Below the pieces are notes generated by a model, which ran no database searches, was not told the origin of the DNA, and saw nothing but the letters and a program-made list of their open reading frames with translations. DNA of 50,974 nt, taken from Candidatus Firestoneibacteriota bacterium. Lineage in GTDB: Bacteria; Oederibacteriota; D2-FULL-39-29. Numbering within the stretch: position 1 is the first letter of the stretch; the number at the start of each line of letters is the position of its first letter. The stretch covers positions 1 to 50,974 of the forward strand of contig JAZDIO010000219.1 of assembly GCA_043804965.1 (NCBI GenBank), in the 5' to 3' direction. A program made the position numbers and the translations under genes. Below are positions 107 to 46,958 of the stretch, piece after piece.

Positions 107-194
107 TGCAAGTTTGAAATATTAAACTTGTCCGCTTTAGCGAGATCTCGTCTTTGGCGGAAAATTCAAAACAAGGAAAATTATAATAAAAAAA

Positions 195-222
195 GCCCCG
201 CATTTTTCTGCGGGGCTTTTTT
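195..222. terminator. Bidirectional rho-independent terminator
   Basis: 8-bp GC-rich stem GCCCCGCA (195-202) / TGCGGGGC (209-216) with a 6-nt loop. An A7 run lies upstream and a T6 run downstream, so a U-tract follows the hairpin on either strand. It serves the + gene ending at 106 and the - gene ending at 387. Confidence 0.8.
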
Positions 223-224
223 CG

Positions 225-380
225 TTTTTATGACGTCACTGCCAAAGAAAACAGCTCAGAACTCGTGAGCTCGCGGGACGTGCCCTGCACCATTACGGTA
301 CAGGGTGGTAAATTTGGCATGAATAATTGAAAATCTCCTATCGTCGAAACTCCGTGCGTAAGCTCGGAGAGGTTCATAAG
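225..380 (-). ncRNA. Structured repeat element, copy A, in the 3' trailer of the alpha-oxoamine synthase mRNA
   Basis: Homologous to 1808-1945 (same strand) and to 35447-35505. Contains the 30-nt core hairpin (375-346), a helix TGCCAAA (240-246) / TTTGGCA (313-319), an inner hairpin AGCTCA..TGAGCT, and an extra 9-bp hairpin at 283-305. Confidence 0.55.
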
Positions 381-386
381 CGGCTG

Positions 387-1763
387 TTAAATTACACCTA
401 ATTCTTTACCTACTTTTTTAAACTTATCCAGTACAAAAGACATTTCAGATTCGGTGTGCGTTGCGGTATAACTAGTTCTGATAAGAGCTCCTCCGGGCGG
501 TACTGCGGGAGAAACAACAGGATTTACGAATACGCCTTCTTCTTCAAGGCGTTTACCCATTTTGTAGCATTTATAATCATCTCCAATAAGGATGGGGATA
601 ATCGGAGATTCTGTGTCTCCGGTTTCATAACCTAAATCCTGGTAGCCTTTTTTCATCATTTTAGTTATCTTCCATAAATTAGCGCGTCTTTCCGGTTCGT
701 TTTTAATTATTTCCAGGGATGCAAGAACTGACGCTACATTTGACGGAGGCATTGAAGCCTGAAAGATCTGAGCTCTTGAAGTATGTTTGATGTAATTTAT
801 TGTTCTTTCTTCTGAGGCTATGTATCCTCCGAGAGAAGCAAAGGATTTTGAGAAAGTACCCATTATCATATCGACTTTACTTTCAACCCCGAAATGTTCC
901 GAAACACCCCTGCCGTTTTTTCCGAATACACCTACTGAGTGTGCGTCATCGACCATTACTTTGGCTCCATATTTTTGCGCTATTCTTGTTATCTCGGGAA
1001 GGTTAGCCAGGTCCCCTTCCATTGAAAATACACCATCGACAACCAGAAGTTTTCCGGATTTTGGTTCTGCTTTTGCTATTAATCTTTCCAGATCCTCCAT
1101 GTCATTATGCTTGAACTTGATAGTTTTTGCGAATGAAAGCCTGGTGCCGTCAATAATAGATGCATGATTGGTCCTGTCGCAAAAAATCAGGTCGTCTTTG
1201 CCCGCAATAGAAGAAACAACGCCTACATTTGTGGTAAAACCGGTGGAATACAGGAGAGCGGCTTCTTTTCCTACAAAATCTGCAAGAGCAGCCTCGCATT
1301 TTACATGCAAATCAAGTGTCCCGTTTAAGAATCTCGACCCGGAACAGCCTGTACCGTATTTTTTAAGTGCTTCTATTGCGGCTTCAATTACTTTTGGATG
1401 CGAGGTCAATCCCAGGTAATTATTTGAACCTATCATTATCAGTTTTTTTCCATGGTAAATAACTTCGGTGTCCTGCCCCGATTCAATAGCTCTGAAGTAA
1501 GGGTAAATACCGGCTTTTTTTACCTGATCCGCTGCCGTGAAATTACGGCATTTTTCGAATAGATCGCCTTTTTTTGTTCCTGTTGGAATTATGTATTCAT
1601 CACCAACTTTGAAAATATTTGCGGCTTTCAGTTTTACCTTAAGGCTTTGCTTTGAGTACATATTCTTTACACTCTGCCCAAAGCGCTTTATTCCGATTGC
1701 TTCCCCTTTGTGTTTCCTCATTTTGCGAAGCCGACCGAAAGCTTTCATTTTTTTCATTACCAT
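387..1763 (-). CDS. PLP-dependent alpha-oxoamine synthase (serine palmitoyltransferase / KBL / BioF family) with a basic N-terminal extension
   Basis: PLP-lysine motif GTFSKSFASLGGY, plus GSNNYLGL, DDAHSVG and ASMPPS. The C-terminus ...IRTSYTATHT...GKELGVI resembles KBL/SPT. The ORF-track start (TTG 1793) has no SD, whereas ATG 1763 is preceded by AAGGAG with a 7-nt spacer. Confidence 0.85.
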   Translation of the reverse strand: MVMKKMKAFGRLRKMRKHKGEAIGIKRFGQSVKNMYSKQSLKVKLKAANIFKVGDEYIIPTGTKKGDLFEKCRNFTAADQVKKAGIYPYFRAIESGQDTEVIYHGKKLIMIGSNNYLGLTSHPKVIEAAIEALKKYGTGCSGSRFLNGTLDLHVKCEAALADFVGKEAALLYSTGFTTNVGVVSSIAGKDDLIFCDRTNHASIIDGTRLSFAKTIKFKHNDMEDLERLIAKAEPKSGKLLVVDGVFSMEGDLANLPEITRIAQKYGAKVMVDDAHSVGVFGKNGRGVSEHFGVESKVDMIMGTFSKSFASLGGYIASEERTINYIKHTSRAQIFQASMPPSNVASVLASLEIIKNEPERRANLWKITKMMKKGYQDLGYETGDTESPIIPILIGDDYKCYKMGKRLEEEGVFVNPVVSPAVPPGGALIRTSYTATHTESEMSFVLDKFKKVGKELGVI

Positions 1764-1807
1764 ACTTCTTCTCCTTTTTAGCCGGTTGGACAAAAAGACC
1801 GGCAGAT

Positions 1808-1945
1808 AATTACTGTTTATGATGTTATGCCGAAGAAAACAGCTCAGAACCCGTGAGCTCGTAGGATGACTTCGGCATGGATAATGAATATTTCATATCA
1901 TCAGAAACTCCGTGCGTAAGCCCTGAGAGTTTCCTAACGTCACTG
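1808..1945 (-). ncRNA. Structured repeat element, copy B, in the 5' leader of the alpha-oxoamine synthase mRNA
   Basis: Same core as copy A (1934-1904). The closing helix ATGCCGAAG (1827-1835) / CTTCGGCAT (1870-1878) carries compensatory changes relative to copy A. It lies between the promoter at 2009-2037 and the start codon at 1763. Confidence 0.55.
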
Positions 1946-1975
1946 GAATTTTACCTTTATAAAATAGGCGTTTTA

Positions 1976-1984
1976 TGATATAAT
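1976..1984 (+). promoter_or_regulatory. Extended -10 element (TGATATAAT) for the SDR gene
   Basis: TGnTATAAT match about 85 nt upstream of ATG 2068. No good -35. Confidence 0.35.
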
Positions 1985-2008
1985 TTTAATAAATAAAGAA
2001 CTGTTATT

Positions 2009-2037
2009 ATTATAAGACCGTATGTCCTAAAAGTCAA
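2009..2037 (-). promoter_or_regulatory. Sigma70-type promoter for the alpha-oxoamine synthase transcript
   Basis: On the - strand: TTGACT (2037-2032), a 17-nt spacer, then TATAAT (2014-2009). Predicted TSS is near 2002, giving a ~240-nt leader that contains repeat copy B. Confidence 0.6.
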
Positions 2038-3438: not shown

Positions 3439-4798
3439 AAAAGTCCTTACAAAAATAAGGAAAATATTTGACAGAGACAGATTAAAAACCTCCAGAGAGG
3501 AGCTTATTGCGTATTCCTATGACGGATTTATTAAAGAATGCCTTCCTGAGGCTGTTGTTTTTCCTGAGAGTACTGAAGAAGTATCAGAATTGGTTAAGCT
3601 GGCAAATGAGGAAAAGTTCCACCTGACTTCAAGAGGTTCAGGGTCCAATCTTTGCGGCGCTGCAATTCCACAAAAGGGCGGTGTGGTAGTCTGTTTTTCA
3701 AAAATGGATAAGACAATTAAAATAAATAAAGACAATAGGTATGCTGTTGTTCAGGCAGGGAAAATACTGGAAAACTTGCAGAGGGAATTGGAAGATTATG
3801 ATTTGTTTTATCCTATTGATTTGGGGTCAGCGCGTATTGCGACAATAGGCGGTTCTGTGGCGCTTAATTCCGGAGGAATGAGATCTTTGAAATATGGAGT
3901 TACCCGGGATTATCTGATTGGCTTAAAAGTTGTATTGCCGTCAGGGGATATAATAAAAACAGGGGTTTTAACCAGAAAAAATGTTGTCGGTTATGATTTG
4001 AACTCTCTTTTTTGCGGTTCGGAGGGAACTCTCGGGATTGTTACCGAAGTTACCGTCAAACTTATTGTAAAACCAAAATTTATAAAGGTTCTTCTGAATC
4101 ATTATCAGAATATTGATAATGCATGCGACGCAATCAATGAAATAATGGCGAGCGGGGTAATTCCGACAGCTCTTGAGCTTGTTGATAATCTTGTAATTAA
4201 TGCCGTGGAAGATTATGTGAAAATAGGGCTAAAGAAAGATGCGGCTGCTTTTTTATTGATTGAGCTTACGGGAGATAAAGATCAGGTGGAGAGAGATTCA
4301 ATTGTTGTAGAAGCTCTATGTAAAAAGAATAATCCTTCAAGGTCTGAAATATCAAAAAGCGCTGAAGAAAGCGAAAAATTGTGGCTGGCAAGAAAGAGCG
4401 GTTTTGGAAGTATGGCCAGATTTAAGCCGATTTGCATAACCGAAGATGTTACAGTTCCCGTAGCATTTTTATCTGAAACAATTAAATTAATACATGAATT
4501 GAGCAAAAAACACGGAGTTCTTCAAGGGTTGCTCTCTCACGCAGGCGATGGTAATCTTCATCCCCATTTCTTGCTGGATAATAAGAATGAAGAACATAGG
4601 GTTGATGATATTATGGACGAGCTTATGCCTTTTGTAATAAGCGTTGGCGGGACCATATCCGGAGAACACGGGGTGGGGATCGGTAAAAAGAAATTTTTAC
4701 ATTATCAGCTTGATGATAAACAGCTTGGGCTGATGAGGAAGATTAAGAAATTGTTTGACCCGAGCGGGATTTTAAATCCCGGAAGTTTTCTTGATTGA
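3431..4798 (+). CDS. glcD: FAD-linked oxidase, GlcD / D-lactate dehydrogenase family
   Basis: PCMH-type FAD-binding region (RGSGSNLCGAA, IGGSVALNSGG, KNVVGYDL, GSEGTLGIVTE) and C-terminal GEHGVG. Confidence 0.8.
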   Translation: MDEKVLTKIRKIFDRDRLKTSREELIAYSYDGFIKECLPEAVVFPESTEEVSELVKLANEEKFHLTSRGSGSNLCGAAIPQKGGVVVCFSKMDKTIKINKDNRYAVVQAGKILENLQRELEDYDLFYPIDLGSARIATIGGSVALNSGGMRSLKYGVTRDYLIGLKVVLPSGDIIKTGVLTRKNVVGYDLNSLFCGSEGTLGIVTEVTVKLIVKPKFIKVLLNHYQNIDNACDAINEIMASGVIPTALELVDNLVINAVEDYVKIGLKKDAAAFLLIELTGDKDQVERDSIVVEALCKKNNPSRSEISKSAEESEKLWLARKSGFGSMARFKPICITEDVTVPVAFLSETIKLIHELSKKHGVLQGLLSHAGDGNLHPHFLLDNKNEEHRVDDIMDELMPFVISVGGTISGEHGVGIGKKKFLHYQLDDKQLGLMRKIKKLFDPSGILNPGSFLD

Positions 4799-4820: not shown

Positions 4821-6005
4821 ATGACAAGAAGAGAAAGAGTGTTAGCTGCGATAAATCATAAAGAACCTGATAGGATACCAAGGGATCTTGGAGGCATGGA
4901 TTCTACGGGCATACACGGTGTTGCTTATAATAAATTAAAAAAATATTTAGGCATTGAAGACGGAAAAACGCTTGTCTATGATCCTTATCAGCAGGTTGTT
5001 AAGGTGGAACTTTCCGTACAGGAGAAAATTAAGGGCGATGTACTTCCTGTAATAATAGAACCTAAAGAGTGGAAGACGGGAATATTGTCCGATGGCAGCG
5101 TATGTGAGATACCAAAAAAGTGGAATGAAAAAATATTGCCGGAGGGAAAAAGGATTGCTCTGAATGATAAAGGCGAAGAGATAGCAGTAATGCCTTCCGG
5201 TTCGTATTATTATGATTCTATTAATCCTCCCTTTTATAATGTTGAAACCCTCGCGGACCTTGATAAAAACTTTAACGCCTTTAAAGGCATGGATTGGCCG
5301 TTTTTTGCGGATGAAACATTTGAGGACATTGAAAGAAGAGCAAAGAGCCTTTATGAAAAAACTGATTTTGCTTTAATGGGTAATTTTTGTGCGCATATCT
5401 TTGCCGGCGGGCAAGGACTCCGGGGCTATGAAAAGTTCATGGAAGACCTGTATGTTAATCCTGAGTTGGCGGAAGCGGTTATGGACAGACTGGCAGAAAC
5501 ATATATCAAGAGATTTGAAAAATATAAAGATACGGTTGGAAAATATGTCCAGATCATAAATGTAAATGATGATCTGGGGACCCAGGAGGCCTTGCAGATA
5601 TCTCCTCTGATGTATCGTGAAAAAGTAAAACCTTATCAGAAAAAACTTTATCAGTATATAAAAAAGAATTGGAAGGGAAAACTTTTTTTTCACAGTTGCG
5701 GCAGTGTTGTTGATATAATACCTGATCTTATAGAGATAGGAATTGACATCCTTAATCCGGTTCAGTATGCGGCCAGAGGGATGGAGGTTAAAGAATTAAA
5801 AAAGAACTTCGGGAAAGATCTGGTTTTTTGGGGCGGAGGGTGCGATACTCAAAAAGTGCTGCCTTTCTCAACATCCGAGAAGATTAGGGAAGAAGTTAAG
5901 AAACAATCCGATATACTGGGTGCCGGAGGAGGTTACGTTTTCTGTCAGGTACACAATATTCAGTATGACATTAAGCCTGAAAATATAATGGCTCTTTACA
6001 CCTAG
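4821..6005 (+). CDS. Uroporphyrinogen decarboxylase (URO-D) family protein, MtaA/CmuA-like
   Basis: N-terminus MTRRERVLAAINHKEPDRIP and the region FHSCGSVVDIIPDLIEIGIDILNPVQ are typical of URO-D-fold enzymes. ATG 4821 has AAGGA upstream; the ORF-track TTG 4791 overlaps the end of glcD. Confidence 0.6.
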   Translation: MTRRERVLAAINHKEPDRIPRDLGGMDSTGIHGVAYNKLKKYLGIEDGKTLVYDPYQQVVKVELSVQEKIKGDVLPVIIEPKEWKTGILSDGSVCEIPKKWNEKILPEGKRIALNDKGEEIAVMPSGSYYYDSINPPFYNVETLADLDKNFNAFKGMDWPFFADETFEDIERRAKSLYEKTDFALMGNFCAHIFAGGQGLRGYEKFMEDLYVNPELAEAVMDRLAETYIKRFEKYKDTVGKYVQIINVNDDLGTQEALQISPLMYREKVKPYQKKLYQYIKKNWKGKLFFHSCGSVVDIIPDLIEIGIDILNPVQYAARGMEVKELKKNFGKDLVFWGGGCDTQKVLPFSTSEKIREEVKKQSDILGAGGGYVFCQVHNIQYDIKPENIMALYT

Positions 6006-7784: not shown

Positions 7785-7832
7785 AATAAAAGGCGGTGTT
7801 ATATGATGGAAGAGGTTATGAGTGCGCCGGAT

Positions 7833-7862
7833 ATTGTAATTTGTCGTTTGTCATTTGTAATT
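7833..7862 (+). promoter_or_regulatory. 30-nt heptad leader box ATTGTAA-TTTGTCG-TTTGTCA-TTTGTAA-TT
   Basis: 28 of 30 nt identical to 46914-46943. It ends 20 nt before the start codon, just upstream of the AAGGAG SD. Confidence 0.55.
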
Positions 7863-7882
7863 TTCTTTTTAAGGAGTAAAAA

Positions 7883-21448: not shown

Positions 21449-21524
21449 GCTGATGTAGCTCAGTTGGTAGAGCAATTGATTCGTAATCAGTAGGTCGCCG
21501 GTTCGATCCCGGCCATCAGCTCCA
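21449..21524 (+). tRNA. tRNA-Thr (anticodon CGU), CCA encoded
   Basis: Cloverleaf read by eye. Acceptor GCTGATG/CATCAGC, D arm GCTC-AGTTGGTA-GAGC, anticodon arm ATTGA-TTCGTAA-TCAGT, T arm GCCGG-TTCGATC-CCGGC, then discriminator T and CCA. TGATAAAAT extended -10 at 21432-21440. Confidence 0.9.
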
Positions 21525-34252: not shown

Positions 34253-34404
34253 CAAAGAAAATTACGATTTACGAATGACGATTGACAATTTTAAGAGGTC
34301 CACCAAAAAGCGGGTGGATGATATAATAATTATCACATTTAAAAAGACTTTATGGGCAGGTTTTTACGTGAGTAACGTGGAACGTTTTAACTAGGGAGCT
34401 ATAT

Positions 34405-35451
34405 TTGGAGTACAAGAATTATTACGACATACTTGGAATTGATAAGCAAGCTGATGCTAAGACTATCACATCCGCGTATAGAAAACTTGCTAAAAAACAT
34501 CATCCGGACTATAACCCGGGGGATAAAAAGGCCGAAGATAAGTTTAAAGAGATAAATGAAGCTTATGAAGTACTCTCCGACAAAAGTAAAAGAGAGAAAT
34601 ATGACAGCATCGGGTCGGATTGGAATAACTGGCAGCAGTATGCGCAAGGCCAGCCGCACGGCCGTCAGCAACAGTACGGCGGGTATACTTCATCTTCCGG
34701 GAATTTTGATGAAAGTGTTTTTGGAGAAGGCGGCTTTTCTGATTTCTTCAGGACTTTTTTTGGAGGGGCGGGAAAGGAAAGGACCAGTTTTGATTCTTTC
34801 AACAATGATTATTCCCCGGCTGAAGAAGGATCTTACAGAGGTGACATTGATGCAAAGATTGAGTTAGACTTAAAAGACGCATATCTTGGAGGGGAGCGTA
34901 CTTTTCAACTTTCAGTGCAGGAGGAGTGCTATACCTGCGGGGGAAGAGGCGTTATTTCCAGAAATCAGTCCTGTTCTGCCTGTGCGGGTAATGGTATTTC
35001 CGTGAAAGTTAAGAAATTGACAGTGAAGATCCCTCCCTGTATAAAAAACGGATCAAAGATAAGAATTGCCGGACAGGGAAATAAGGGGCGGAATGGAAAA
35101 TCAGGAGATCTCTATTTATCCGTTAAAATACGCCCGCATCATTTCTTTGAGCTGGAAGGGAATAATCTCTCCTGCGAACTTCCTGTTTCCGTGACTGAAC
35201 TGGCGCTTGGAGCAAATATAGAAGTACCTACTTTTAAGAGCAGGGTAACTGTTAAAGTTCCCCGGGGTACTCAAAACGGCTCGGTATTCCGGTTAAAAGG
35301 AATGGGTTTCTGCGCCGCGGGGACTCCGGGTGATTTACTGGTAAAATTGAAAGTTCATCTTCAGAAAAACTTGAGTGAAAAAGAAAGAACACTTTTTGAA
35401 GAGTTGAGAAAACTTGAAAAAGAGAATCCGAGAAGGGGTTTGTCGGTATGA
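34405..35451 (+). CDS. J-domain co-chaperone (DnaJ/CbpA family) with only two CxxCxGxG repeats
   Basis: YYDILGI...YRKLAKKHHPDYN J domain, G/F-rich linker, CYTCGGRG and CSACAGNG, and DnaJ C-terminal domains. TTG start. Confidence 0.8.
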   Translation: MEYKNYYDILGIDKQADAKTITSAYRKLAKKHHPDYNPGDKKAEDKFKEINEAYEVLSDKSKREKYDSIGSDWNNWQQYAQGQPHGRQQQYGGYTSSSGNFDESVFGEGGFSDFFRTFFGGAGKERTSFDSFNNDYSPAEEGSYRGDIDAKIELDLKDAYLGGERTFQLSVQEECYTCGGRGVISRNQSCSACAGNGISVKVKKLTVKIPPCIKNGSKIRIAGQGNKGRNGKSGDLYLSVKIRPHHFFELEGNNLSCELPVSVTELALGANIEVPTFKSRVTVKVPRGTQNGSVFRLKGMGFCAAGTPGDLLVKLKVHLQKNLSEKERTLFEELRKLEKENPRRGLSV

Positions 35452-35505
35452 ACCTCTCCGGGCTTACGCACGGAGTTTCGACGCTAGGAAGTTTTTAGAT
35501 CTTTA
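35447..35505 (+). ncRNA. Structured repeat element, truncated copy C (core hairpin plus second hairpin only)
   Basis: TATGAACCTCTCCGGGCTTACGCACGGAGTTTCGACGCTAGGAAG is near-identical to the - strand of copy A (382-338). It starts within the stop codon of the J-protein gene. Confidence 0.5.
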
Positions 35506-46842: not shown

Positions 46843-46913
46843 CAAAAAATAATAAGTACAAATGACAAGTTACGAAGTACAATATAATGAGGATTGTATA
46901 TAGTTCACCTTGT

Positions 46914-46943
46914 ATTGTAATTTGTCCTTTGTAATTTGTAATT
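46914..46943 (+). promoter_or_regulatory. 30-nt heptad leader box ATTGTAA-TTTGTCC-TTTGTAA-TTTGTAA-TT
   Basis: 28 of 30 nt identical to 7833-7862. It ends 15 nt before the start codon, just upstream of the GGAGG SD. An imperfect inverted heptad arm lies at 46854-46883. Confidence 0.55.
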
Positions 46944-46958
46944 ATATTTGGAGGTAAT

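Follow-up and report, generated by a model that had tools for sequence, protein, structure and literature searches.

The window analysed here, that is, the whole 50,974-nt stretch of a Candidatus Firestoneibacteriota contig, carries near its left end a minus-strand gene of the alpha-oxoamine synthase family (class I/II aminotransferase), with its ATG at 1763 and its stop codon at 387-389, for which the public gene call gives 456 aa. The original prediction had described two homologous minus-strand direct repeats flanking this gene (copies A and B), and both are indeed there, with 84% identity over 118 aligned positions and covariance-model scores of 102 and 100 bits. The promoter and the terminator which it had placed around the gene, both of them strong, were recovered as well. 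It had overlooked a third, truncated copy elsewhere in the window (copy 3), the outer helix of the element and the terminator-like hairpin with a U tract within each of copies A and B. The features are as follows.

128..162, minus strand: second small repeat, CCGCC..GACGAGATCTCG..GCGGA, standing alone here and nested inside the main element in other genomes
188..223, both directions: bidirectional intrinsic terminator, with an equivalent directly after the stop codon in orthologous loci
228..379, minus strand: copy A, TTATGAAC...GACGTCATAA, between the stop codon and the native terminator (covariance-model match 224-384)
253..272, minus strand: hairpin 3 of copy A, AGCTCA-N7-TGAGCT followed by GTTTTCTTTG, terminator-like
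283..305, minus strand: nested 9-bp hairpin, an insert in copy A; in other genomes another nested repeat occupies this internal position
346..375, minus strand: module 1 of copy A, 30-nt core hairpin GAACCTCTCCGAGCTTACGCACGGAGTTTC, with a C-U mismatch in the 8-bp register
387..1763, minus strand: alpha-oxoamine synthase family coding sequence, between copies B and A
1781..1803, minus strand: GCCGGT/ACCGGC hairpin, separating copy B from the Shine-Dalgarno sequence and occurring once in the window
1817..1943, minus strand: copy B, in the 5' leader (covariance-model match 1813-1942)
1841..1860, minus strand: hairpin 3 of copy B, followed by GTTTTCTTCG, terminator-like
1904..1933, minus strand: module 1 of copy B, GAAACTCTCAGGGCTTACGCACGGAGTTTC
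2009..2037, minus strand: promoter-like site TTGACT-17-TATAAT, agreeing with the consensus at 11 of 12 positions
35447..35500, plus strand: copy 3, truncated to module 1 and about 20 nt (covariance-model match, 55 bits)

Co-transcription of copies A and B with the synthase gene is plausible, since both sit between the promoter and the terminator of one gene. The 18-nt core GCTTACGCACGGAGTTTC is matched three times in the window, against 0.01 matches expected by chance, and the TATGA of copy 3 supplies the stop codon of a DnaJ-like gene. All three window copies lie in the sense direction of their neighbouring genes.

Build and folding of the element

Across the copies collected the element measures about 115-125 nt (range 110-175 nt, the longest ones holding nested inserts) and has sharp common ends, TTATGAAC...CGTCATAA, its terminal sequences being TTATGAACCTCTCC... 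and ...GGCATAACGTCATAA. The terminal inverted repeats TTATGA...TCATAA are 6 nt long with TA at their tips. Every aligned copy has the 3' TA, about two thirds have the 5' one, and 6 of 21 copies have AATGA instead of TATGA at the 5' flank. The bases directly 5' of ATGA vary (T, A or C, then T or A), whereas the 3' end is invariant; copy B has a variant 5' end, GTGACGTTAGGAAAC, and the 3' end ...CATAACATCATAA. Inwards from these ends, a 5' hairpin module is followed by a large imperfect palindrome consisting of an outer helix GACG/CGTC (GATG/CATC in copy B), an inner helix ATGCCAAA/TTTGGCAT and, lastly, a hairpin rich in GC with a T tract after it; the U tract is confined to the sense strand of the element. 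The hairpin preceding this tract is kept in the canonical and in the window copies, by different sequences. The build is mosaic: L015 and L022 represent one locus and differ in their internal modules, nested inserts occupy one internal position in copy A, L003, L007 and L026, a variant at L028 (2277-2426) is devoid of module 1, and module 1 stands alone in an Elusimicrobiaceae MAG (L001). We found no promoter-like site inside a canonical copy. A small ORF starting from the ATG of the element (MNLSELTHGVS...) was considered and rejected, as copy B, L018 and L023 have lost this ATG and neither frames nor stops are conserved.

Several of the helices originally proposed were recovered. The hairpin AGCTCA-CGRGTTC-TGAGCT is common to copies A and B, the nested 9-bp hairpin is present, and the closing helix, TGCCAAA/TTTGGCA in A, reads ATGCCGAAG/CTTCGGCAT in B, where a double change has turned one A-U pair into G-C. 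The 8-bp stem of the 30-nt core is complete in copy B, but in copy A it is broken by the C-U mismatch and RNAfold prefers another register of 5 bp; the second hairpin, proposed for both copies, is missing from the centroid structure of copy A. The prediction that the folds are consistent only for minus-strand RNA did not hold, as plus-strand transcripts fold equally well: RNAfold gave -47.3 kcal/mol for the plus strand vs -46.5 kcal/mol for copy A, and -38.6 vs -36.9 kcal/mol for copy B. No strand asymmetry was seen among the copies either: the mean advantage lies with the antisense folds, by 2.9 kcal/mol, and the counts are 11 G-U cells vs 8 A-C cells.

In the family alignment 95% of the paired cells are indeed paired, and double-sided compensatory changes were noticed at five base pairs, exceeding all 500 shuffles; in copy B they fall in two helices. 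Five double-sided changes, together with a hairpin kept by different sequences, imply that a structural constraint of some kind acts on the element, and this constraint could be functional. The compensatory changes preserve the palindrome, and as such they do not distinguish RNA from DNA or point to a strand-specific RNA. Substitutions of this sort illustrate that covariation alone is no proof of RNA function. The helices are, moreover, disrupted in some copies (L004, L024 and L013).

Dispersal of the family and its empty sites

Some 20 more loci, unrelated to these, carry the element in MAGs of Firestonebacteria and in metagenomes. A search pattern demanding the 18-nt core matched five loci in two Firestonebacteria MAGs, besides metagenome contigs, and the invariance of the core is an ascertainment effect because the pattern itself demanded it. 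Chance or coding matches to the 18-mer (L005, L012, L019 and L032 to L034) were left out, the L019 match being one which we take to be dGTPase-like coding sequence. Altogether 22 distinct full-length copies, those of the window included, share their ends while their flanks are unrelated, which established that they are members of one dispersed family. Between loci, copies share 97-100% identity over 114 nt in spite of their unrelated flanks, and since identical copies sit at unrelated loci the family has been active recently. A single MAG or sample contains at least five copies, and the 51-kb window three.

The copies examined occupy gaps between ORFs, and at L001, L009, L015 and L018 they abut the stop codon of the upstream ORF. 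The genes beside the other copies are unrelated, and both 5' and 3' positions are occupied. In gaps between co-directional genes five copies are sense and seven antisense, the others lying in divergent or convergent gaps, which established that the family has no orientation bias. A plain repeat of the REP or MITE type had been anticipated to show many copies in random orientation with covariation absent; the first two were largely observed, while the third was not, as some covariation exists. A remnant of a CRISPR repeat, suggested by the GAAAC...GTTTC of the core, was ruled out, there being one core per locus and no array.

The synthase locus itself provides filled and empty sites. Both copies and the GCCGGT/ACCGGC hairpin are absent from five sequenced orthologous loci (L039, L040, L041, L044 and L045), in which a covariance-model search gave no match. 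In L039, L040 and L044, with 83-84% protein identity, the intergenic gaps measure about 146-149 nt and 75 nt, and these are the three of the five repeat-free loci in which promoter and terminator are kept. Alignments with L039 and L040 show the conserved promoter and terminator with element-sized gaps where A and B sit, and the synteny of the epimerase and DUF1844 genes is kept in both. The gaps are 101 and 32 nt in L045 (79%); in L041 (72%) the upstream gap is 94 nt and the downstream gene overlaps the end of the coding sequence. At the P0002 locus (85%), which was judged by gene spacing, the gaps measure 174 and 93 nt and could not accommodate a copy. Repeat-free relatives hold the synthase gene beside the same divergent epimerase gene, and the closest ones share the DUF1844 gene too. 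Similar observations were made elsewhere in the window: copy 3 is absent at the orthologous L036 site and, conversely, the element of L027/L036 has no counterpart at the orthologous position of the window, 34257-34385, so that gain and loss of the element between related genomes is rapid and goes in both directions. In the genomes that provide the empty sites the flanks have only about 80% nucleotide identity, and the junctions are therefore not readable to the base; at one empty site the left flank TTATTAT is already present.

The original prediction recognised no known RNA class in the copies, and this was borne out by an Rfam 15 search of the whole window, which at gathering score returned only a tRNA at 21449-21521 (the adjoining ORF is a T2SSE ATPase by Pfam). 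Over positions 1-2400 at E<=10 weak, terminator-driven matches appeared at 96-271, and inside copies A and B the sole match was a chance-level snoR116 (1873-1923, E=4.7, 18 bits vs a gathering score of 47). The element had no similarity to plasmid and phage records in blastn, viral-contig scans gave no match, and a canonical copy found none in 5,426 E. coli genomes (20,395 records, containing ERIC copies). A literature search retrieved no paper on repeats in Firestonebacteria. As regards a parent insertion sequence, we noticed no locus in which both ends are parted by an ORF and no orphan 3' end in the window.

Origin of the repeats and comparison with known systems

Taken together, it is highly probable that copies A, B and 3 belong to a new family of short, mosaic, MITE/ERIC-like interspersed repeats of Candidatus Firestonebacteria, and the elements flanking the synthase gene are best regarded as probable insertions of small mobile DNA rather than as a regulatory RNA dedicated to the gene. 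A and B would have inserted independently, in the source lineage only, into the intergenic regions on either side of the gene, copy B landing downstream of a promoter already in place and ahead of the ribosome-binding site, and copy A after the stop codon but ahead of a terminator that was likewise already there. The bracketing of a single gene would then be a by-product of a preference of the element for intergenic DNA, and the transposase would presumably be supplied in trans. As RNA, both copies may be passive structures at most; the hairpin and U tract of copy B could cause partial premature termination, and copy A could stabilise the 3' end or add a redundant terminator.

The original prediction implied a new riboswitch-like class, that is, a riboswitch or attenuator leader with a homologous 3' element, made for this gene and acting through the GCCGGT/ACCGGC hairpin as an expression platform. 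The position of copy B between a near-consensus promoter and the Shine-Dalgarno sequence speaks for such a cis-regulatory RNA, as do its terminator-like hairpin, the U tract of which can alternatively pair in the closing helix, the compensatory changes in two of its helices and the want of an Rfam match. A regulator of this gene would be expected in the leaders of its orthologs. On the contrary, the five orthologous loci keep the gene without the elements, and the leader hairpin, although it exists in the window, is absent from all five, leaving its role as a platform unsupported; a fold of the full leader gave no decisive picture of Shine-Dalgarno sequestration. The element lies, furthermore, beside unrelated genes at about 20 other loci, in both orientations and both 3' and 5', both strands fold equally well, and near-identical copies at unrelated loci are the signature of a spreading repeat and not of conserved regulation. 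The cis-regulatory reading is thus largely refuted by the empty orthologous sites, and we consider it very improbable. Still less credible, indeed barely conceivable, is that a mobile gene cassette, either an integron attC-type or a composite unit, brought the synthase gene to the locus, as same-orientation direct repeats around a single gene might suggest: the repeat-free relatives hold the gene at the same place beside the same epimerase gene, a synteny which rules out both kinds of cassette, the gene is served by a conserved promoter and terminator of its own, the ends of the element, as read from the sequence, do not match the attC core sites RYYYAAC/GTTRRRY, and no integrase was found among those window ORFs which were checked by Pfam.

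The remaining readings accept that the repeats are mobile and differ as to how they move or what they do. Instead of a cut-and-paste MITE which duplicates TA, the element could be single-stranded hairpin DNA mobilised by a Y1/HUH tyrosine transposase, in the way of REP/RAYT or of the PATE elements derived from IS200/IS605. Its very short terminal inverted repeats of 6 nt with subterminal hairpins at both ends, the variable bases 5' of ATGA against an invariant 3' end, a pattern which insertion 3' of a short target would leave, the palindrome-preserving substitutions, the pre-existing TTATTAT and the fact that no target-site duplication is demonstrable at empty sites with flanks of about 80% identity would all suit this mode of movement; yet an unsystematic look noticed no Y1 transposase or TnpB near the copies, the element is much longer and more composite than 20-40-nt REPs and is devoid of the unpaired GTAG or CGTC tag which defines the REP superfamilies (PMC3733652), and TA at both tips fits MITEs of the IS630 or ERIC type, so that we regard such a mechanism as unlikely, though the most credible of the alternatives. 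It is less likely still that an element of mobile origin has since been domesticated, either as a dispersed RNA module (terminator, 3' stabiliser or RNase target) or as a site on DNA or RNA to which a host protein binds, its structure then being maintained by that function. The extensive pairing with its five double-sided changes, the hairpin and U tract maintained by different sequences and the location of the copies between ORFs, several of them against stop codons and copy 3 even providing one, would be in keeping with it, and so would the orientation-dependent effects of ERIC elements on mRNA stability in Yersinia (PMC2229807). The near-equal numbers of sense and antisense copies, although the U tract is on the sense strand only, the disrupted helices and the rapid gain and loss between related genomes argue against it, and the compensation within the palindrome may also arise from recognition of hairpin DNA by a transposase or from templated repair between the arms. 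More specific, and distinctly improbable, is a mobile modular structure cassette, the sense transcript of which would form an intrinsic-terminator hairpin with its U tract sequestered by the closing helix; insertions like copy B would then create new attenuators or determinants of mRNA stability, module 1 would be a conserved binding site for a host or transposon protein or for a guide-RNA system, and the family would rewire the expression of many genes across the candidate phylum.

Under the preferred reading, that of a MITE/ERIC-like repeat family, the locus should not be entered as a candidate riboswitch in annotation, and similar paired structured elements in Firestonebacteria MAGs can be recognised as one repeat family with the help of the consensus and the covariance model. 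A family of interspersed repeats is thereby documented for a candidate phylum that has not been cultivated; the family could be of use as a strain-typing marker, could be a source of assembly breaks, and its insertions could provide a natural experiment on the tolerance of leaders and trailers to inserted sequence.

Compared with known systems, copy B is akin to a riboswitch or attenuator in being structured, in lying in a long 5' leader and in having a terminator-like hairpin that overlaps an alternative helix. It differs in that the element is tied to no gene family, is absent from the orthologous leaders and elsewhere lies antisense and 3' of genes, nor does it have the strand-specific structure of a leader RNA, as antisense folds are equal or better. 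REPs and BIMEs are likewise extragenic palindromes, often 3' of genes and plausibly transcribed, which have been proposed to act as terminators or mRNA stabilisers, but REPs are single hairpins of 20-40 nt with 8-9-bp stems and an unpaired GTAG or CGTC tag (PMC3733652). The element described here is a composite of more than 110 nt, the CGTC of which is paired with a distant GACG, which ruled it out as a CGTC-tagged REP, and no RAYT gene was seen. Its mosaic build is reminiscent of BIMEs. Correia/NEMIS elements of Neisseria also occur in short and long forms distinguished by an internal segment, are gene-adjacent and co-transcribed and form long hairpins (PMC2229807); their terminal inverted repeats are, however, 24 bp long as against 6 nt here, and some forms have an IHF site.

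There is also a likeness with ERIC/IRU/RU-1 (127 bp), which shares with our element a size of about 120 nt, a non-coding, intergenic, imperfectly palindromic sequence with a highly paired transcript, terminal inverted repeats of about 6-7 bp with TA tips, insertion in either orientation and filled and empty sites among relatives (PMC2229807). The two differ in host phylum and in the separate 5' hairpin module which the element has outside the main palindrome, and they have no sequence similarity, so that the element is not homologous to the enterobacterial 127-bp consensus and does not belong to the ERIC/IRU family proper. ERIC, too, has size variants, with internal insertions at fixed positions. 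Bacterial MITEs in general are non-coding, multicopy and shorter than 200 bp, with short terminal inverted repeats ending in 5'-TA-3' and with highly paired transcripts (Delihas 2008, PMC2229807), and the family described here agrees with them in all these respects, with 22 copies of 110-175 nt which have unrelated flanks and no conserved ORF, with TTATGA...TCATAA at its ends, and with filled and empty sites between relatives for A, B, copy 3 and the L027 element.

The synthase transcription unit and its flanking copies

The alpha-oxoamine synthase gene is flanked by two homologous repeat elements, copy A and copy B, and a truncated third, copy 3, which the original prediction had overlooked, is present in the same window. 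The features concerned are as follows.

128-162, minus strand: second small palindromic repeat, TTCCGCC..GACGAGATCTCG..GCGGACA (short form CCGCC..GCGAGATCTCG..GCGGA), on its own, in the interval from the terminator to the convergent gene
188-223: strong bidirectional terminator
~228-379, minus strand: copy A, downstream of the synthase gene
387-389 (stop) to 1763 (ATG), minus strand: alpha-oxoamine synthase family gene (Pfam Aminotran_1_2, E=4e-56)
1781-1803, minus strand: GCCGGT-N11-ACCGGC hairpin, downstream of copy B and ahead of the Shine-Dalgarno, occurring once in the window
~1817-1943, minus strand: copy B, upstream of the synthase gene
2037-2009, minus strand: promoter-like site TTGACT-17-TATAAT (11/12 consensus positions)
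35447-35500, plus strand: copy 3, truncated

Since the promoter (2037-2009) and the terminator (188-223) bracket A and B, both copies lie inside the predicted transcription unit, and judging from the positions of these signals they are probably co-transcribed with the synthase gene. Aligned with each other, A and B showed 84% identity over 118 shared positions, copy A carrying an additional internal hairpin (283-305). The window contains three occurrences of the 18-nt core GCTTACGCACGGAGTTTC, where chance would give 0.01, and two of the 20-nt hairpin GAGCTCACGRGTTCTGAGCT, where 0 were expected. No Rfam family matched A or B, either at the gathering score or at E<=10. The original prediction, which had described a homologous flanking pair with promoter and terminator and of no ncRNA class that it recognised, was thus accurate for the most part. 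Its 8-bp core stem was complete in copy B alone; copy A has a C-U mismatch there and RNAfold favoured a 5-bp register (CUCCG/CGGAG); the second hairpin it claimed was weak in copy A. It had passed over a terminator-like hairpin followed by GTTTTCTT inside both copies, and an outer helix whose family form, GACG/CGTC, is replaced by GATG/CATC in copy B.

The N-terminal ~65 residues of the synthase (387-1763, minus strand) form an extension rich in lysine/arginine. Its nearest homologues measure 451-469 aa and include several with a Firestonebacteria label; homologues in Zixibacteria, Nitrospirota and other groups have ~393 aa and align to no more than 86% of the query.

A dispersed, mosaic family with filled and empty sites

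We scanned one genome per species together with metagenome contigs using the core pattern, and among the genomes two Candidatus Firestonebacteria MAGs gave matches; the window contig likewise belongs to a Firestonebacteria MAG. With duplicates removed and A and B counted, 22 distinct full-length copies were obtained, which have sharp ends in common (5' (T/A)ATGAAC, 3' GGCATAACGTCATAA) and unrelated flanks. Copies from different loci were 97-100% identical over 114 nt, those at loci L015, L028 and L030 being identical to one another. From the alignment we derived a covariance model, which gave 90-157 bits for all full-length copies and 55 bits for copy 3; the TATGA of copy 3 provides a DnaJ-like gene with its stop codon.

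The family is a mosaic. L015 (6525-6649) and L022 (775-885) come from two related populations and occupy one chromosomal site, their flanks agreeing at 98% identity and the interior consisting of an AT-rich arm plus ATGCCAAATTCATC in one and of TCCGCCTGAGGCGGA in the other; as the interior differs at a single site, modules have been swapped in place. Different nested hairpins occupied a single internal position in copy A, L003, L007 and L026, and a variant at L028 (2277-2426) lacked module 1, the 30-nt core hairpin of the 5' end. The second small repeat was nested within the main element in other Firestonebacteria genomes (L003 ~1170-1210, L007, L026 ~4330-4370) and absent from the orthologous loci L039 and L040. 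Module 1 alone, TATGAAACTCTCCGTGCTTACGCACGGAGTTTC, was found at 40 bits in an Elusimicrobiaceae MAG (L001 155-208, JAZUNI010000059.1), where a 1049-aa ORF ends immediately ahead of it and a terminator-like hairpin follows; this MAG is assigned to a different lineage, and the copy could be a separate hairpin repeat, a horizontal transfer or a binning error. A 24-nt core-pattern match in Mycobacterium asiaticum (L005 ~5574-5597, NZ_HG964937.1), in a region upstream-like and G+C-rich by eye, was taken as coincidence (chance estimate roughly 0.07 over the entire collection).

A 24-nt intergenic motif, TCAATCGTCAYTYGTAAATCGTAA, composed of TCGTmA/TTGTAA-like short units, was observed in the window (34262-34285, minus strand) and just 3' of the element copy in L010 (~1880-1914, plus strand), a metagenome locus unrelated to the window. 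Related runs occur in the window at 7821-7870 and 46846-46949, and similar short tandem runs (CTTACAAAC, CTTAGTG, GGTTCTAGG) lie beside several copies at other loci.

To compare sites, contigs carrying synthase orthologues (72-85% identity) were set against the window. The gaps flanking the gene were ~146-149 nt on its upstream and 75 nt on its downstream side in L039, L040 and L044 (83-84% identity), against ~305 and 277 nt in the window; epimerase-DUF1844 synteny was seen in L039 and L040. The gaps measured 101 and 32 nt in L045, and 174 and 93 nt around P0002, an orthologue of 85% identity known by gene spacing; in L041 the upstream gap was 94 nt and the downstream gene overlapped the CDS end. 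In alignments of the orthologous loci the promoter and the terminator directly after the stop codon were conserved, while A, B and the GCCGGT/ACCGGC hairpin, which had been read as an expression platform, appeared as gaps in the relatives, and the covariance model matched none of the five loci (L039, L040, L041, L044, L045). These empty orthologous sites indicate that A and B inserted in this lineage only, on either side of a gene already in place; the GCCGGT-N11-ACCGGC hairpin may either have come with copy B or have arisen later. Elsewhere, the L027/L036 element lies in a YajQ-like/DnaJ gap whose orthologous window site (34257-34385) is empty, and copy 3 is missing at the orthologous L036 site. 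Filled and empty sites in both directions thus show that copies appear and disappear over the time in which species diverge.

Covariation and orientation

In a five-helix model of the 22-copy alignment, 95% of cells were standard pairs, and double-sided changes in five pairs exceeded all 500 shuffles and every slid control, which argues that the structural constraint is real. In hairpin 3 (AGCTCA-N7-TGAGCT) CGAGC/GCTCG changed to CGGGC/GCCCG or TGAGC/GCTCA, while in copy B A-U became G-C in the closing helix and C-G became U-A in the outer helix. That the core never varies is an artefact of searching with it, and helices were broken in several copies (L004, L013, L024). The double-sided changes ran from Watson-Crick to Watson-Crick, symmetric across both strands; G-U cells numbered 11 against 8 A-C cells, and antisense folds were on average 2.9 kcal/mol more stable than sense. 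The proposal that the elements fold only as minus-strand RNA was not borne out: the plus strand gave -47.3 (A) and -38.6 kcal/mol (B), the minus strand -46.5 and -36.9. The covariation is therefore no demonstration of a strand-specific RNA function; most simply, the constraint is that the element itself must stay palindromic, which may stem from its being recognised when mobilised or from one arm templating the repair of the other.

Taking long ORFs as a proxy for genes, which is reliable at the low G+C here, we found the examined copies between ORFs with unrelated genes as neighbours. In co-directional gaps five were sense (copy 3, L006, L016, L018, L023) and seven antisense (L004, L014, L024, L027, L028, L029, L030), other copies lying in divergent or convergent gaps. 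Such mixed orientation, which the original prediction had itself named as the sign of a plain REP/MITE-type repeat, speaks, as do the unrelated neighbours, against a gene-specific RNA.

Identity of the element

The family is new but of a well-known type, and not a new class of regulatory RNA. The element matched none of the public RNA families, nor any phage, plasmid or E. coli sequence, and no description of repeats in Firestonebacteria was found in the literature searched. Copy B went in downstream of the promoter and ahead of the ribosome-binding site, and copy A past the stop codon and ahead of the terminator. By analogy with the ERIC/REP literature, the hairpin and U tract of copy B could end some transcripts early, and 3' stability or redundancy could come from copy A; a domesticated regulatory role for individual copies, copy B included, is a minor possibility to which the data lend no specific support. 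As to movement, a single-strand, Y1-type mechanism is a possible alternative to TA-duplicating cut-and-paste; possible clues are the variable bases immediately 5' of ATGA, the invariant 3' end of the element and TTATTAT already present at the end of an empty site.

Identity with GTAG- or CGTC-tagged REP was ruled out, and the lack of any similarity in E. coli genomes sets the element apart from ERIC proper. Compared with published MITE criteria and ERIC properties (PMC2229807), it most likely behaves as an ERIC-type bacterial MITE: it is a non-coding element of ~120 nt, is bounded by 6-nt terminal inverted repeats tipped with TA, gives strongly base-paired transcripts, and occurs with internal size variants, in either orientation and at filled and empty sites.
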